Assembly (NCBI RefSeq): GCF_003018255.1
Contig: NZ_CP027440.1
Source of the DNA: Escherichia coli
GTDB lineage: Bacteria; Pseudomonadota; Gammaproteobacteria; Enterobacterales; Enterobacteriaceae
Reading direction: 5' to 3' (one strand)
Length of the DNA stretch: 64,000 nucleotides
Under the pieces are notes generated by a model. That model was not told the DNA's origin, searched no databases, and was given only the letters and a program-made list of their open reading frames with translations. Both the position numbers and the translations under genes were made by a program. Below, in pieces: positions 4,534 to 9,285 of the stretch (its first letter is position 1; every line of letters begins with the position of its first letter).

Positions 4534-5979
4534 ATGCTCGTGGCCCAACACACCGTTTATTTCCCGGACGCCTTTCTGACACAAATGCGCGAAGCGATGC
4601 CTTCGACGCTCTCTTTTGATGATTTTCTTGCCGCCTGTCAGCGCCCGTTGCGCCGCAGCATTCGCGTTAATACGCTGAAAACCTCCGTTGCTGATTTCCT
4701 GCAATTAACTGCTCCTTATGGCTGGACGCTTACGCCAATTCCGTGGTGTGAAGAAGGTTTCTGGATTGAACGCGACAGTGAAGATGCATTGCCGTTGGGT
4801 AGTACCGCCGAGCATTTAAGCGGCCTGTTTTATATTCAGGAAGCCAGTTCAATGTTGCCTGTTGCCGCCTTGTTTGCTGACGGTAATGCACCACAGCGGG
4901 TGATGGATGTCGCTGCCGCGCCCGGCTCCAAAACGACGCAAATTGCCGCGCGGATGAATAACGAAGGGGCAATCCTTGCCAATGAGTTTTCCGCCAGTCG
5001 GGTAAAAGTGTTACATGCCAATATCAGCCGCTGTGGCATCAGTAATGTTGCGCTCACGCATTTTGATGGCCGCGTATTTGGTGCGGCAGTGCCAGAAATG
5101 TTCGATGCCATTTTGCTGGACGCTCCCTGCTCCGGCGAAGGCGTGGTGCGTAAAGATCCCGATGCGCTAAAAAACTGGTCACCAGAAAGCAATCAGGAAA
5201 TCGCAGCGACCCAACGGGAACTGATCGACAGCGCCTTTCATGCATTACGTCCTGGCGGTACGCTGGTTTACTCGACCTGTACCTTAAACCGGGAAGAAAA
5301 CGAAGCCGTTTGCCTGTGGCTGAAAGAGACTTATCCCGACGCAGTAGAGTTTTTACCGCTTGGCGATCTCTTCCCTGGTGCAAACAAGGCGCTGACCGAG
5401 GAAGGCTTTTTGCATGTTTTCCCACAAATTTACGACTGCGAAGGCTTCTTCGTTGCTCGTCTGCGTAAAACTCAGGCGATTCCCGCCTTACCCACCCCAA
5501 AATACAAAGTGGGCAATTTCCCGTTCAGCCCGGTGAAAGATCGCGAAGCCGGACAAATTCGTCAGGCGGCTGCAAGTGTTGGCTTAAACTGGGATGAAAA
5601 CCTGCGACTCTGGCAGCGTGACAAAGAACTGTGGTTGTTCCCGGTGGGCATTGAAGCCCTGATCGGTAAAGTCCGATTTTCTCGCTTGGGGATTAAACTT
5701 GCCGAAACGCACAACAAAGGTTATCGCTGGCAGCATGAAGCCGTTATTGCCCTTGCCTCCCCCGACAATGTGAACGCTTTTGAACTGACACCGCAGGAAG
5801 CGGAAGAGTGGTATCGCGGGCGCGATGTTTACCCGCAAGCCGCGCCAGTAGCGGATGATGTATTGGTTACTTTCCAGCATCAGCCGATTGGTTTAGCCAA
5901 ACGGATTGGTTCGCGACTGAAAAACAGCTACCCGCGTGAACTGGTGCGCGATGGGAAACTTTTTACCGGTAACGCCTGA
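4534..5979 (+). CDS. rsmF: 16S rRNA m5C1407 methyltransferase
   Basis: 481 aa ORF with SAM-binding motif ([11 protein letters not shown]) and Sun/NOL1-type catalytic region (DAPCSGEG). Matches RsmF/YebU. Confidence 0.9.
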
Positions 5980-6096
5980 CAGCGCACAAAAAAAGCGCAC
6001 TTTTTGACTGGCACATTCGGCTGCCTCAACTAGGCTGAAAAATGGTGCGATCGGACTGGTCGTACCACAACCGGCAGCTAAATGGAGAGCACGAAG

Positions 6097-6333
6097 ATGA
6101 AAACCAGTGTGCGCATAGGCGCTTTTGAAATCGACGACGGCGAATTACACGGCGAATCGCCGGGTGATCGAACGTTAACCATTCCTTGTAAATCAGACCC
6201 CGATTTATGTATGCAACTGGATGCCTGGGATGCTGAAACCAGTATTCCTGCCCTGCTAAATGGCGAACACTCTGTCCTTTACCGTACCCGTTACGATCAA
6301 CAATCTGATGCCTGGATTATGCGTCTTGCCTGA
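6097..6333 (+). CDS. yebV: Small uncharacterised protein YebV
   Basis: 78 aa from MKTSVRIGAFEIDDGELHG; position between rsmF and pphA as in E. coli. Confidence 0.7.
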   Translation: MKTSVRIGAFEIDDGELHGESPGDRTLTIPCKSDPDLCMQLDAWDAETSIPALLNGEHSVLYRTRYDQQSDAWIMRLA

Positions 6334-6437
6334 TCCAAAAAGAACCCGTCGGCATGGCGGGTTATTTGTCCTGGTTATTTCCCCGTTGTAAAATCTCTCC
6401 TAAACTTAACGGTACGGCACCACACTTCGGGGATGAA

Positions 6438-6629
6438 ATGTTCGCGCTGGTACTTTTTGTTTGCTACCTGGATGGCGGTTGTGAAGATATTGTTGTGGAT
6501 GTCTACAACACGGAACAGCAGTGTCTTTATTCTATGAGCGATCAACGGATCCGCCATGGCGGTTGTTTTCCAATCGAGGATTTTATTGATGGTTTCTGGC
6601 GACCAGCACAGGAGTACGGTGATTTTTAA
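6438..6629 (+). CDS. yebW: Small uncharacterised protein YebW
   Basis: 63 aa from MFALVLFVCYLDGGCEDIVVDVYNTEQQC; conserved small ORF, start chosen by recollection of YebW. Confidence 0.6.
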   Translation: MFALVLFVCYLDGGCEDIVVDVYNTEQQCLYSMSDQRIRHGGCFPIEDFIDGFWRPAQEYGDF

Positions 6630-7289
6630 TTATTGCAATTGCACAAGAGTCAGTTCGCCCCCAAAGACAGCACCGGTATCAATATAATGCAGGTTGCCAA
6701 TATCCACGCGATGTCGCAACGGTGTATGACCAAACCAGAAATGATCAGCACCTTTAATTCCCTGCCCTTTTGGGCGTTCACCTAATCGCGAGCGGCTCCA
6801 CAAGACCTGATGCAAATCAACGTCCTTTTGCCATTCATAAACATCATCCGGATAATCGGCATGGGCAATAACATGTTTGCCGGTGCGACTGTGTACTTCA
6901 AGAATAAAGGGCAAATGCTGACATTTTTCCAGCGCCGTTTTCGCTTGTTTCTGTTGATTATCTGCCAGCGCAATAAACCAGTCGCCGCCATTCATGAACC
7001 ACAAAGACATCTGCTGGGATGCCAGCGCATCCATCGCCATCTGTTCATGATTGCCTCTTACCGCACGAACCCAATGTTGTTCCAGTAACTGCAGGCAACG
7101 TAAACTTTGCGGCCCACGATCGATAACGTCTCCCACTGAGATAAGTAAATCTCGCCACGGATCAAAACGACAATGCCATAATTTGCGGCGCAACTGCTCA
7201 AGACAACCGTGTATATCGCCTGAAAGCCAGATATGTCGCCATTGATGACCCGCAATTCTCTGATAAACGGGCGCAGGCTGTTTCATCAA
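6630..7289 (-). CDS. pphA: Serine/threonine protein phosphatase 1 (lambda-phosphatase-like metallophosphoesterase)
   Basis: 219 aa with metallophosphatase motifs GDIHG, GDVIDRG, GNHE. Matches PphA/PrpA. Confidence 0.85.
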   Translation of the reverse strand: MMKQPAPVYQRIAGHQWRHIWLSGDIHGCLEQLRRKLWHCRFDPWRDLLISVGDVIDRGPQSLRCLQLLEQHWVRAVRGNHEQMAMDALASQQMSLWFMNGGDWFIALADNQQKQAKTALEKCQHLPFILEVHSRTGKHVIAHADYPDDVYEWQKDVDLHQVLWSRSRLGERPKGQGIKGADHFWFGHTPLRHRVDIGNLHYIDTGAVFGGELTLVQLQ

Positions 7290-7384
7290 TATTTTCCTCC
7301 CGCGCTAAAGATCACATAATCTTAACAAGAATGTTAAAAAACGCTGGACGCAGACAGTAGAGTGTGTGTTATGGTTGACTATAA

Positions 7385-7652
7385 AGTCAGCGAAGGGAAT
7401 GCTTCTGGCTTTTAACAGATAAAAAGAGACCGAACACGATTCCTGTATTCGGTCCAGGGAAATGGCTCTTGGGAGAGAGCCGTGCGCTAAAAGTTGGCAT
7501 TAATGCAGGCTTAGTTGCCTTGCTCTTTAAGAATAGATGACGACGCCAGGTTTTCCAGTTTGCGTGCAAAATGGTCAATAAAAAGCGTGGTGGTCATCAG
7601 CTTAAATGTTAAAAACCGCCCGTTCTGGTGAAAGAACTGAGGCGGTTTTTTA
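7385..7652 (+). ncRNA. ryeA: RyeA (SraC) small RNA, antisense to and fully overlapping SdsR
   Basis: Established locus organisation (RyeA encoded opposite SdsR between pphA and yebY). A plus-strand hairpin plus T-tract at about 7613-7651 can serve as its terminator. The 5' end is not determinable from sequence. Confidence 0.45.
7420..7523 (-). ncRNA. sdsR: SdsR (RyeB) sigmaS-dependent small RNA
   Basis: Minus strand reads GCAAGGCAACTAAGCCTGCATTAATGCCAACTTTTAGCGCACGGCTCTCTCCCAAGAGCCATTTCCCTGGACCGAATACAGGAATCGTGTTCGGTCTCTTTTT, which matches SdsR as I recall it. A CTATTCT -10-like element lies just upstream on that strand and a GGTCTC-T-tract terminator at the 3' end. Confidence 0.7.
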
Positions 7653-7680
7653 TTGGAAATCAAAAGGCTATTTTAGGTAA

Positions 7681-8022
7681 TTAACAGAGTTTTTCAGCTC
7701 GCTCTATAAACGGTGCCAGACTCATTTTTTCGCCGGGATTGTTAGGATCATCAATCTGAATCACCGAAATGGGTTGGGCTTTAGTCTTCCCACTGGCAAC
7801 TTCCTTTTGTGCGATATCGTTTAACGGATACTGCACGAGGGTACTTGGGTTGATGACATACAAAGCATTACCCGGTCGGCAAGTCAGCATCACCTCTTCG
7901 CGATTAAACGCCCATTTGTCTTTACCCACTTCAAAACGGCTGACGGTAATCACCTGCGGTGCCGCCAGCGCCGCTGCAGAACTGGTGAGTAACAGAAACG
8001 CCAGAATACTTTTTTTCATCAT
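7681..8022 (-). CDS. yebY: Secreted DUF2511-type protein YebY
   Basis: 113 aa with N-terminal signal peptide ([20 protein letters not shown]); last gene of the yobA-yebZ-yebY cluster. Confidence 0.8.
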
Positions 8023-8034
8023 TTTCGTAATCCA

Positions 8035-8907
8035 TCAAAAAGGTTCGAGAGTCGCAAGCAGGCTGATGATCACCAGCACTACCGCACCTATCGCCCATTC
8101 GAGTTTAGTCATCCACACAAACCAGGGAGCCGCACGATCTTCATCCTGCCTCATGCGCGGTACAAGAACATAACGATTAGCCAGCGCGATGACCACCATA
8201 ATCATCACCAGGATGGCTTTGAGCATTAAGAGTTGGCCCCAGTAAGTCGTAAGCGTGGGGGGAAATCCGGTAATCAACAATGCATTAAGCACGCCGCTTG
8301 CCAGTACGCCGATCACCGCAAAATGCCCGCACCAGGAAAAACGCATCAGCGCCTGAATAGCCTGGTGTCGCCAACGGCCTTTGATGAGTTGCATACACCA
8401 GAGCACCGGCAGTAATCCCCCAAACCACGCCGCCGCACAGATCAGGTGAATTGCGTGATTAGTCTGATGGATTTTCGCCGTTACCCCTTCATTCAGCGTC
8501 GCATGCCCGACTCCCGCCAGCAGAATAAATTGCGCGGTAGTGAGCATAAATAGCAAACGTGGCATATTCTGCGGTTGCATAAGGGCAACGATCAACGTTA
8601 CGAGGGCGAGAACAATTTGCCATAACCAGATGCCACCAAACTGCGTTTGCAAAACAGCCAGCCAAATGTTTGGCGAAAATACATCTGACCATCCCGTTCC
8701 CATCAACCCGCCCTGAACGGCGAGCATTGCAGTGGCACTGATCAAACTCCAGACGGCAGCGTGCTGTTGTAAACGCAGAAAACGCTTCGTCAGCAAGCGA
8801 CGAATCGTTAAGGGGGCCAGCCAGGCACCGTACATTGCGAAGCCAAAAACCAGCATCAACGAGGTGAAATGGATAAATCGCAGCGCGATCCAGGTAAACG
8901 CCAGCAT
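8035..8907 (-). CDS. yebZ: CopD-family inner membrane protein
   Basis: 290 aa polytopic membrane protein recognised as YebZ (CopD homologue), directly downstream of the CopC-like gene. Confidence 0.85.
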   Translation of the reverse strand: MLAFTWIALRFIHFTSLMLVFGFAMYGAWLAPLTIRRLLTKRFLRLQQHAAVWSLISATAMLAVQGGLMGTGWSDVFSPNIWLAVLQTQFGGIWLWQIVLALVTLIVALMQPQNMPRLLFMLTTAQFILLAGVGHATLNEGVTAKIHQTNHAIHLICAAAWFGGLLPVLWCMQLIKGRWRHQAIQALMRFSWCGHFAVIGVLASGVLNALLITGFPPTLTTYWGQLLMLKAILVMIMVVIALANRYVLVPRMRQDEDRAAPWFVWMTKLEWAIGAVVLVIISLLATLEPF

Positions 8908-8910
8908 GAT

Positions 8911-9285
8911 TTATTTCACGCTAAAGGTGTAGTGTCCTTTCGTTTTATGCCCGTCCACCGAAACAACATGCCAGTCAACGGTGTAGGTTCCGGGTTTCAG
9001 CGAATCGGCCAGTGGAACAATCAGTTGCTTTTGGTCCTGCTCATTCCGCTTCGCCGGTAATGTTTTAATATTTTCGTTTTTTGGCCCCGTGATTTTTGCA
9101 CCACTGAATCCTGTTTCAACGCCTTCCGAGAAGTTTAAAGTGATTGCCTGCGGGGCAGCTGTCACTTGCGCATTTGCCGCAGGATACTGATGCGTTAAAT
9201 GCGCATGTGCCCAGACGGAAGGTGTCACCAACGAAGTGGTCAGGATTGCCAGCGCGTAGCGAAGGGAGCGTGCAGTTGAAGCCAT
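8911..9285 (-). CDS. yobA: CopC-family periplasmic copper-binding protein
   Basis: 124 aa with signal peptide and N-terminal His motif after cleavage (AHAHL...). Matches YobA. Confidence 0.85.
   Translation of the reverse strand: MASTARSLRYALAILTTSLVTPSVWAHAHLTHQYPAANAQVTAAPQAITLNFSEGVETGFSGAKITGPKNENIKTLPAKRNEQDQKQLIVPLADSLKPGTYTVDWHVVSVDGHKTKGHYTFSVK

Follow-up and report, generated by a model that had tools for sequence, protein, structure and literature searches.

The small-protein genes yebV and yebW next to pphA in Escherichia coli, with a conserved candidate operator in the yebV leader

In a 64,000-nucleotide stretch of Escherichia coli DNA (hereafter the window), two small open reading frames, yebV and yebW, lie side by side next to the phosphatase gene pphA. 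They raise the questions of whether both are genes, where their translation starts, whether they are expressed together and what their products may do. Open frames of such size are abundant here, 41 of at least 30 amino acids overlapping the 3.5 kb around the locus, so the frames by themselves are no evidence that yebV and yebW are genes. To address these questions, we compared 80 Enterobacteriaceae loci (79 for counts concerning yebW).

Two conserved genes and their start codons

yebV occupies positions 6097..6333 of the plus strand (ATG 6097, TGA 6331–6333) and encodes 78 amino acids; yebW follows on the same strand at 6438..6629 (ATG 6438, TAA 6627–6629) and encodes 63. The gap between them, read from the sequence, is 104 nt (6334–6437). 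RefSeq places yebV, yebW and pphA at the same coordinates, as judged from a 100% identical genome and from K-12 annotations, and a sequence-only reading of this DNA had thus given the names, sizes and spacing of the two genes correctly. The YebV protein is that of K-12, the four nucleotide differences all being synonymous. YebV matched Pfam family PF07351 (DUF1480) with 144.1 bits (cut-off 25, E = 1.4e-42), residues 7–82 of its longer, 83-aa open reading frame aligning to positions 3–78 of the 78-position profile. YebW matched PF07358 (DUF1482, the YdfD/YebW family) with 120.3 bits (cut-off 25, E = 3e-35). RefSeq and Pfam already list both genes with their families and coordinates, and the finding is an ordinary one.

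Of 5426 complete E. coli genomes, 5424 contain the region, and the gene order rsmF-yebV-yebW-pphA is kept in more than 20 genera. Ratios of dN/dS were 0.03–0.10 for the two genes (0.03–0.08 for yebW), with ~71–73% of the differences at third codon positions, a pattern that indicates strong purifying selection on both. yebV and yebW very probably belong to the core genome of the Enterobacteriaceae as real small-protein genes, each transcribed on its own and using the shorter of its possible starts. The earlier reading had called their function unknown, which is broadly right but slightly outdated: a crystal structure (PDB 8VVA), RpoS dependence, an effect of yebW on minimal inhibitory concentrations (MICs) and the YdfD paralogue have been published.

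As had been remarked, the open-reading-frame track gives longer versions of both genes, at 6082–6333 (83 aa) and 6354–6629 (91 aa). In the window, each frame extends without a stop back to its upstream ATG, and some gene callers output 91-aa and 97-aa versions. However, the upstream ATGs are found only in Escherichia. The one for yebV (6082–6084) overlaps the conserved ribosome-binding site and is replaced by ACG or AAC elsewhere; the one for yebW (6354–6356) falls inside a conserved terminator hairpin, in its loop. Many genera carry in-frame stops 3–10 codons 5' of the yebW ATG, which break the extension, whereas the ATG at 6438 is invariant across the loci compared, and 78 of the 79 loci have a yebW of 63 codons. 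Supporting the short starts, a Shine-Dalgarno sequence precedes each of them: GGAGAG at 6084..6089 (+) for yebV, with 8-nt spacing (GGAG in nearly all genera, GGGG in the Klebsiella group), and GGGGA at 6429..6433 (+) for yebW, conserved across genera (GAGG in other genera). Duplexes with the anti-Shine-Dalgarno sequence had energies of −6.4 (yebV) and −7.8 (yebW) kcal/mol at the short starts, compared with −2.0 and −1.7 kcal/mol at the long ones, which have no ribosome-binding site of their own. The Pfam profiles likewise start at the short methionines, position 1 of PF07358 being aligned to the Met at 6438. It is therefore extremely unlikely that the 83-aa and 91-aa forms are the real products. 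In most other genera, including the crystallised Klebsiella protein, YebV starts one codon upstream of the position of 6097 (MxKTS, 79 aa); the E. coli protein is without this extra second residue, which makes no material difference. Conservation of start codons across genera, the test proposed in the earlier reading, supports its preference for the shorter forms, and we predict that yebV is translated from ATG 6097 and yebW from ATG 6438. The comparative evidence resolves the doubt about the starts, a result of little weight in itself.

Probable separate transcription units and the junction with pphA

A terminator scan identified an intrinsic-terminator-like hairpin 3' of yebV, AACCCGTCGGCATGGCGGGTT with the tail ATTTGTCCT, at 6343..6372 (+). 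All 69 distinct sequences keep its 8-bp stem (−12.5 kcal/mol) intact, without a single broken pair; one pair covaries (UA/UG/CG), and the loop is variable in both sequence and length. With its stem-loop and U-tract, the element is a predicted Rho-independent terminator. The U-tract is interrupted (UUAUUUGUCC), so that some yebV transcripts may plausibly run on into yebW, and the efficiency of the terminator is uncertain.

Downstream of the hairpin lies a promoter candidate for yebW at 6378..6406 (+), composed of a conserved −35-like TTTCCC (6378–6383), a 17-nt spacer and the −10 element CTAAACT (6400–6406). Of the 79 loci, 53 have CTACACT or CTACAAT as the −10, which lies ~30 nt ahead of the ATG. 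The element is also found in Erwinia (L084) and Lonsdalea (L086); the CTAAACT of the window differs from the CTACACT of other genera. A promoter scan additionally returned an alternative found only in Escherichia, TTGTCC-17-TAAAAT at 6366–6394. The conserved CTACACT-type −10 is also the sole evidence of a link between yebW and RpoS.

Same-strand neighbors that lie 91–129 nt apart in ~75 of 80 loci, separated by a terminator with a weak U-tract, could also be a functional pair or operon joined by read-through, for example one in which the acidic YebV neutralises a toxic, YdfD-like YebW; the YebW paralogue YdfD is indeed toxic. This arrangement is improbable. The hairpin and yebW's own −10 are conserved, and in two Citrobacter loci (L022, L030) a 2.2-kb insertion carrying an MFS transporter and a LysR regulator splits the two genes. 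Each gene also occurs without the other, yebW in Lonsdalea and Chania and yebV in loci L036 and L078. Moreover, cells tolerate yebW by itself in multicopy and show no phenotype when it is deleted. The genes are thus very probably separate units, with starts, promoters and a terminator that are predicted from sequence comparison.

On the other side of yebW, pphA (protein Ser/Thr phosphatase 1; 6630..7286, minus strand) is convergent with it, and the pphA stop codon (6630–6632) abuts the yebW stop. RefSeq and a match to NCBIfam equivalog NF008516 (440 bits) agree on the identity of this neighbor, whose product also matched the NinI-like phosphatase family phrog_246 (E = 2e-87). Both the identity of pphA and the immediate adjacency of the two stops had been proposed from the letters of the window, and both hold, with 0 bases between the stops. 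The same gap of 0 nt is seen in 45 of 63 pphA-bearing loci, and in 17 more it measures −4 to +5 nt. There is no room for a terminator between the stops, so the transcripts must overlap. Consistently, the MG1655 excludome includes yebW-pphA, with RNA-seq overlap in at least 50% of 58 transcriptomes. Like the convergent excludons, the pair is convergent, with 0 nt between the stops and overlap in RNA-seq, and by its overlapping transcripts it is one of them. Transcription of pphA would run antisense through yebW; that it lowers yebW expression is possible, but we propose this only tentatively. Kept across genera, the stop-to-stop junction offers a clean case for asking whether convergent overlap is regulatory.

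YebV and a candidate operator in its leader

The crystal structure of a YebV ortholog, KPN_02352 of Klebsiella pneumoniae, is available (PDB 8VVA, PMC11809132), and the protein is described as a monomeric, acidic split β-barrel whose production in stationary phase and under stress is controlled by RpoS. The window's YebV matched 8vva_A with a phmmer E value of 4.2e-43, shares 81–88% identity with its orthologs in other genera and belongs to the DUF1480 family. Like the rest of the family, it keeps the invariant motifs FEIDD.EL and C.SDPDLC; the cysteine pair C31 and C38, together with E11, D13, D14, S33, D34 and D36, is invariant in 15 genera. The split β-barrel resembles that of the PilZ domain, a c-di-GMP receptor (2.06 Å rmsd to PDB 4XRN, according to the 8VVA authors). 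The likeness is in fold only: at 78 residues YebV is shorter than PilZ (~110), the PilZ motifs RxxxR and (D/N)xSxxG are absent from it, and Pfam returned no PilZ match. YebV is not a PilZ member, a conclusion that the 8VVA authors likewise reach. A search of YebV against phage genomes and PHROGs gave no match.

Expression of yebV has been reported to be RpoS-dependent, 72-fold in EDL933 (PMC2907692); it is also documented as an RpoS-dependent gene elsewhere (PMC5437024), and the link is further drawn from a Salmonella proteome and from induction by osmotic and acid stress. On this published basis, yebV belongs to the RpoS (sigma-S) regulon. The predicted yebV promoter has the −10 element CTAGGCT at 6030..6036 (+), followed by the A-rich GAAAAAT. 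Among the 80 aligned loci, 56 have CTACGCT at this place, and another 18 carry CTAGGCT or CCAGGCT. The sigma-S −10 consensus is KCTAYRCTTAA, which the yebV element matches, and the predicted promoter is of sigma-S type.

At a fixed 17–19 nt after the −10, the comparison revealed a 17-bp inverted repeat in the yebV leader, gaCTGGTCGTACCACaa (6054..6070, no strand assigned), which we consider a candidate FadR/GntR-type operator. All 80 loci carry the sequence CTGGTC(G/A)TACCA(C/G), as does the Erwinia locus L084, and it varies only at the central base and at position 15. The repeat stops 26 nt short of the yebV ATG and spans ~+11 to +27 relative to the predicted transcription start, while FadR sites are generally described in a review as lying over the −10/+1 region. 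We found no second such site elsewhere in the 64-kb window. This candidate regulator-binding site is the only new lead at the locus.

The 12-mer at 6056–6067 is identical to the FadR operator of K-12 fadBA at 12 of 12 bases. Both are 17-bp inverted repeats with the shared core CTGGTCGTACCA, and their distances from the start codon are alike (26 nt for yebV, 25 nt for fadB). They differ at the outer positions (ga...Caa in yebV, at...Gat in fadBA), and unlike fadBA, yebV is not a fatty-acid gene and has a sigma-S-type promoter. Compared with the published FadR consensus aaCTGGTCnGACC(T/A)Gtt, the yebV site agrees at 10 of 12 core positions, departing at position 10 (T, not G) and position 15 (C, not G). 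We propose that a GntR-type repressor bound at 6054–6070 would keep yebV off during growth. That this repressor is FadR, released by long-chain acyl-CoA, is suggested by the fadBA match and has, in our judgement, a little less than an even chance. The operator would then offer a hypothesis for the control of yebV and tie the gene to stationary-phase fatty-acid and membrane turnover.

A serious competitor, though we do not rate it as probable, is that the motif serves another regulator of the GntR/FadR subfamily, or acts as an element of the leader RNA. TGGT-N3-ACCA is the generic core of the subfamily, shared by the PdhR box (AATTGGTnnnACCAATT), and the two departures from the FadR consensus point in the same direction. 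When the window was scored with a crude weight matrix derived from seven FadR sites in the literature, the yebV site fell outside the 12 best; the fadBA site itself, however, reached only 7.8 bits once it was left out of the matrix, and the outcome is no clear negative. A literature search found no link between yebV and FadR. FadR is nevertheless favored by the 12 contiguous bases shared with the fadBA operator and by the matching spacing to the start codon. PdhR itself was rejected, because the half-site reads CTGGT and not TTGGT and because neither yebV nor rsmF appears in the PdhR genomic SELEX table. As RNA, the motif can pair over just 4 bp around a 3-nt loop; its flanks have no conserved pairing partner.

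YebW and its kinship with YdfD

YebW is 38% identical to YdfD of the Qin prophage (E = 4e-12) and matched phrog_1092 (E = 4.5e-13). YdfD, also found in related lambdoid phages, is a characterised lysis protein (PMC8835842) that binds the cytoplasmic enzyme IspG through its residues 1–28. Both proteins are DUF1482 members of 63 residues and share a hydrophobic N-terminal strand, G13, C29 and C43; in a 50-sequence alignment of the family, no sequence departs from C29, and L4, G13 and C43 each reach at least 90% conservation. In contrast to YdfD, which is part of the dicB-ydfD phage early operon, YebW is encoded on the chromosome, in the core genome, by a gene that has a predicted promoter to itself, and the protein has an extra cysteine pair (C9/C15) and a conserved DGFWRPA tail. 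The two also differ in effect: multicopy yebW is not lytic and raises the MICs of gentamicin, ceftriaxone and levofloxacin 2–4 fold (PMC5857375, corrigendum PMC9676061), and its deletion is phenotype-free. The MIC rise and lack of lysis argue against strong YdfD-like toxicity.

The AlphaFold model of YebW (mean pLDDT 79.6) places residues 2–9 in a core strand (pLDDT ~89). From the model and the kinship with YdfD, YebW may be a cytoplasmic mini-domain made of a β-hairpin, a helix and a strand. Its N-terminal hairpin might dock on an enzyme of the host, IspG for example, as in YdfD but in attenuated form, which would slow isoprenoid and quinone supply and raise drug tolerance. We put this forward as a doubtful proposal, one that nonetheless supplies a concrete target (IspG, in the MEP pathway) for the resistance conferred by multicopy yebW. 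A Foldseek search of the model against the PDB gave no match with E below 0.9. Resemblances to the N-terminal half of ubiquitin were dismissed as weak and meaningless for a fold of ~45 residues. In the family search, a 5994-aa match (P0250) was discarded as a compositional artefact, being repetitive and rich in Ser, Thr and Asn; a rebuilt profile found nothing in it.

Two other accounts of YebW bear on this proposal. The hydrophobic N-terminus MFALVLFVCYL, the label 'secreted protein' given to orthologs in some sources, and the cysteines, with C29 invariant, C43 nearly so and C9 and C15 added in the YebW branch, would fit an exported or membrane-anchored protein stabilised by disulfides. The hydrophobic stretch, however, is only ~10 residues long with no K or R ahead of it, and D-G-G before C15 makes no lipobox; the YebW sequence thus does not fit a Sec signal peptide or lipoprotein, which would have a basic n-region, at least 12–15 hydrophobic residues, and a cleavage site or lipobox. 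Residues 2–9 belong to the folded core in the AlphaFold model, and the YdfD target IspG is cytoplasmic. Export is accordingly unlikely. Less likely still, and in our view very improbable, is that yebW, alone or together with pphA, is a prophage remnant in decay that lacks a host function. The kinship of YebW with Qin YdfD and phrog_1092, the NinI-like phage phosphatase match of the pphA product, a GC content of 0.45–0.49 over 6300–7350 compared with ~0.52–0.55 upstream and the phenotype-free knockout could all be read in this way. Decay is difficult to reconcile with the low dN/dS of yebW and its constant length, with the near-universal presence of the region in E. coli, or with an identical chromosomal position in more than 20 genera between core genes on both flanks. 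Erwinia and Lonsdalea have yebW beside rsmF and no pphA, and phage ydfD lies in the dicB operon, not beside ninI. As phage ydfD and ninI belong to different operons, yebW and pphA were not acquired together, and we rejected the idea of a single phage-derived island.

The proposals for the two genes can be combined. yebV would be an unrecognised member of the FadR regulon, its sigma-S promoter gated by the fadBA-type operator in the leader, such that this conserved acidic β-barrel protein is made only in cells that have ceased growing and in which long-chain acyl-CoA is rising. YebW would be a domesticated YdfD paralogue that damps an essential host enzyme such as IspG, giving low-level multidrug tolerance, with antisense transcription from the heat-shock gene pphA holding yebW in check. 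Taken as a whole, this scheme is conceivable and clearly speculative. The operator, the YdfD homology and the pphA junction are three leads that make two conserved 'y-genes' testable.

Several minor features of the region were also recorded. An antisense open reading frame at 6375–6557 (−), of 60 aa, was rejected as a gene, being open in just 18 of 78 loci. Further overlapping frames lie at 6260–6391 and 6433–6537. An Rfam scan of 5000–9000 placed nothing inside 6097–6629; its sole matches, SraC/RyeA and SdsR/RyeB, lie beyond pphA.

Identity, conservation and start codons of yebV and yebW

Two small ORFs of 78 and 63 aa, proposed in the sequence-only reading, run from ATG 6097 to TGA 6333 and from ATG 6438 to TAA 6629 (+), with the claimed 104 nt between them as read in the sequence. 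The minus-strand ORF of pphA, the neighboring protein phosphatase gene, ends at 6630–6632, in direct contact with the yebW stop as had been noted, and the names yebV, yebW and pphA are borne out by the RefSeq annotation, which maps exactly onto 6097–6333, 6438–6629 and 6630–7286. The longer versions mentioned there also appear in the mechanical ORF list, from ATG 6082 (83 aa) and ATG 6354 (91 aa). Over 3.5 kb here, that list contains 41 ORFs that are 30 aa or longer; because ORFs of such length are frequent, the gene status of yebV and yebW must rest on other evidence. A 721-nt region matched two E. coli chromosomes at 100% identity and was present in 5424 of the 5426 complete genomes of this species; K-12 has the three genes, arranged alike, as b1836, b1837 and b1838. 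Over a 664-nt stretch the window differs from K-12 at 12 positions; at the protein level YebV is identical and YebW carries one change, H40Q. yebV matched Pfam DUF1480 (144 bits), yebW matched DUF1482 (120 bits) and pphA matched the NCBIfam equivalog NF008516. The initial observation is confirmed and its interpretation supported: yebV and yebW are known genes of known families, an ordinary finding. Three testable leads of modest interest are a possible operator of fadBA type in the leader of yebV, the homology between YebW and YdfD, and the conserved stop-to-stop overlap with pphA. The ORF list and RefSeq give different starts for pphA (TTG 7289 versus ATG 7286, 218 aa; its GGGAGG ribosome-binding site is compatible with either) and for the upstream rsmF (ATG 4534 versus 4540, 479 aa).

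One genome per species was scanned, yielding 80 loci from Escherichia, Citrobacter, Salmonella, Klebsiella, Raoultella, Enterobacter, Lelliottia, Leclercia, Kosakonia, Buttiauxella, Cedecea, Trabulsiella, Atlantibacter, Franconibacter, Pluralibacter, Pseudocitrobacter and others. Almost all 80 share the gene order rsmF–yebV–yebW, followed by pphA in convergent orientation. Pairwise dN/dS, each against the window, was 0.03–0.10 for yebV and 0.03–0.08 for yebW, and third codon positions accounted for 549 of 752 and 518 of 729 differences, respectively; it follows that strong purifying selection acts on both frames.

Exceptions to this layout were also recorded. A deletion in Trabulsiella odontotermitis TbOT1.10 (locus L036, 4270–4330) took the yebW promoter and 5′ part, and the 3′ remnant adjoins pphA; a Pluralibacter MAG (L078) is without yebW, and yebW is truncated to 46 codons in Leclercia adecarboxylata (L077). 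pphA is absent from L011, L032, L035, L063–L065 and L074 (Citrobacter, Intestinirhabdus, Pseudocitrobacter, Enterobacter) and apparently truncated in E. albertii, C. koseri and one C. amalonaticus (L008, L014, L029), with yebW intact in every one of these. Enterobacterial yebV or yebW sequence also occurs in records labeled Microbacterium oleivorans (444-bp contig), Chryseobacterium sp., Stenotrophomonas maltophilia, Listeria monocytogenes and 'Escherichia phage ECO95 1-6-1' (1861 bp); these records (loci L042 and L062, family-search proteins P0108 and P0178, and hit H11) are probably contaminated or mislabeled.

The shorter starts, preferred from the outset, are supported for both genes because cross-genus start-codon conservation, ribosome-binding sites and anti-SD pairing all favor them at the sequence level. 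For yebV, the ribosome-binding site GGAGAG is kept across genera, and anti-SD pairing was −6.4 kcal/mol at 8-nt spacing for ATG 6097 versus −2.0 for ATG 6082, upstream of which this pairing revealed no ribosome-binding site. ATG 6082 falls within the site itself (aATGGAGAG); other genera and E. whittamii have ACG or AAC there. Outside Escherichia, yebV starts at an ATG one codon 5′ of the E. coli ATG, so that the protein begins MxKTS and has 79 aa, which is also the length of the crystallized Klebsiella YebV; Escherichia has AAG at that codon and uses ATG 6097 instead. In Salmonella proteomics, YebV was seen by LC-MS and its start re-annotated to the 78-aa form. For yebW, every locus retains the ATG and a GAGG-type ribosome-binding site, 78 of 79 loci have a 63-codon gene, and the Met at 6438 is the first position of the DUF1482 profile. 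ATG 6354 of the long form is confined to Escherichia and sits in a hairpin loop, in-frame stops lie 3–10 codons 5′ of the conserved ATG in many genera, and anti-SD pairing was −7.8 kcal/mol for 6438 versus −1.7 for 6354.

Predicted promoters, a candidate operator and transcription units

Alignment identified a yebV −10 element, CTAGGCT (6030–6036, +), followed by an A-rich stretch; it reads CTACGCT in 56 of the 80 loci. The element fits the sigma-S −10 consensus KCTAYRCTTAA. It is also in line with the published RpoS dependence of yebV, which is 72-fold in EDL933 (PMC2907692). RpoS dependence was also reported from a Salmonella proteome, and yebV is co-regulated with genes of osmotic and acid stress. 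Another conserved block, TTGACTGGC (6004–6020; ACTGGCGCTTTTGC in other genera), lies ~20 nt 5′ of the −10 element and repeats the ACTGG half of an inverted repeat in the yebV leader; it may serve as a −35 element or as a weaker second repressor half-site.

This 17-bp inverted repeat, gaCTGGTCGTACCACaa (6054–6070), lies 17–19 nt 3′ of the −10 element and is better conserved than any other feature between yebV and the gene upstream. CTGGTC[G/A]TACCA[C/G] was found in 80 of 80 loci plus the Erwinia locus, variation being confined to the central base and position 15; ten loci with G at position 15 have perfectly symmetric half-sites. Within the 64-kb window, the yebV site is the only CTGGT-N3-ACCA. 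The repeat is very probably the operator of a GntR/FadR-type repressor.

As to which repressor, FadR itself is a tentative candidate with somewhat less than an even chance. The 12-mer CTGGTCGTACCA (6056–6067) is identical to the fadBA FadR operator, as checked in the published probe and the K-12 fadB leader, the distance from operator end to ATG is 26 nt in yebV and 25 nt in fadB, and 10 of 12 core positions match the published FadR consensus aaCTGGTCnGACC(T/A)Gtt. Three points speak against a firm assignment to FadR: a review places such sites usually over the −10/+1 region, a crude matrix built on seven of them gave the yebV site no high rank, and the papers that could be searched contain no yebV–FadR link. 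PdhR is less likely because its box needs TTGGT and the PdhR SELEX table lists neither yebV nor rsmF.

A terminator-like hairpin, AACCCGTCGGCATGGCGGGTT (6343–6363, +), flagged by a terminator scan and followed by ATTTGTCC, lies between yebV and yebW. Its 8-bp stem is unbroken across 69 distinct sequences, one stem pair covaries (UA, UG or CG), and the loop varies in both sequence and length, a pattern indicating by alignment a structural element, not coding sequence. Termination after yebV may be partial because the U-tract is interrupted. Beyond the hairpin come a conserved TTTCCC and, 17 nt 3′ of it, the aligned yebW −10 element CTAAACT (6400–6406), which most genera carry as CTACACT or CTACAAT; it is found ahead of yebW in Erwinia and Lonsdalea too. 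In two Citrobacter loci (L022 and L030, 4265–6490), a 2.2-kb insertion with divergently oriented genes for an MFS transporter and a LysR regulator separates the yebV terminator from the yebW promoter. Lonsdalea and Chania have yebW without yebV, and two loci have yebV without intact yebW (L036, where the deletion spared only the yebW 3′ end, and L078). This insertion and the occurrence of each gene without an intact partner show yebV and yebW to be separable. We conclude that each forms its own transcription unit and that a degree of read-through may occur. A shorter insertion of ~0.36 kb was seen at the same site in L023.

YebV and YebW proteins

The Klebsiella YebV ortholog, with a reported identity of 87%, is a monomeric six-stranded split beta-barrel with a short helix cap, and its acidic patch is made of the family's most conserved residues (PMC11809132). 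The fold resembles PilZ but is without c-di-GMP motifs (PMC11809132); RxxxR and (D/N)xSxxG are both absent from the YebV sequence, read directly. No phage homolog of YebV was found in phage genomes or PHROGs.

The YebW family is small, with 92 representatives at 50% clustering, and includes phage proteins and the Qin protein YdfD (38% identity, E 4e-12), whose phage gene comes after dicB in an early operon. C29 is invariant in the family and G13 and C43 nearly so; the chromosomal branch has C9 and C15 in addition. The AlphaFold core is confident (mean pLDDT 79.6), with strands at 2–9 and 15–23, a helix at 26–35, a strand at 41–45 and a disordered tail, and a PDB fold search with this model returned no significant match. 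The hydrophobic N-terminus, in which no signal-peptide or lipobox features could be read from the sequence, is modeled as a core strand. YdfD lyses cells and binds IspG via residues 1–28 (PMC8835842). On a multicopy plasmid, yebW raised gentamicin, ceftriaxone and levofloxacin MICs 2–4 fold, and its deletion gave no phenotype (PMC5857375, corrigendum PMC9676061); the MIC result was originally published as yebV and then corrected to yebW (PMC9676061). Hypothetically, YebW might exert a mild YdfD-like inhibition of isoprenoid/quinone supply that would lead to tolerance to the three drug classes.

Both yebW and pphA have phage relatives, and GC content is 0.42–0.49 over 6300–7800 (yebW, pphA, an sRNA pair and yebY) versus ~0.52–0.55 upstream (letB, rsmF). 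Despite these features, conservation, selection and fixed position argue for yebW and pphA as long-standing host genes. Their joint acquisition is disfavored because yebW occurs without pphA in other families (Erwinia, Lonsdalea).

The junction with pphA

Among 63 pphA-bearing loci of many genera (within L004–L083), the yebW and pphA stop codons (6627–6632 in the window) abut with 0 nt between them in 45; seven Klebsiella-group loci show a 4-nt overlap, and ten more a gap of 2–5 nt. Because this junction leaves a terminator no room, each transcript must run into the other gene. The pair belongs to the MG1655 'excludome', with transcript overlap detected in 50% or more of 58 RNA-seq samples, and this overlap may have regulatory effects. 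Read on the minus strand, the yebV hairpin (6343–6363) is followed by CTTTTTGG (AAAAAG before it on the plus strand), and it may act as a bidirectional terminator, ending pphA transcripts beyond all of yebW; the E. coli minus-strand stem has a C-A mismatch and reaches only −8.9 kcal/mol. Between pphA and yebY (7417–7561) lie the overlapping antisense sRNAs SraC/RyeA (+, 176 bits) and SdsR/RyeB (−, 114 bits), placed as in K-12, with a terminator-like hairpin at 7455–7427(−) within the region of the pair.
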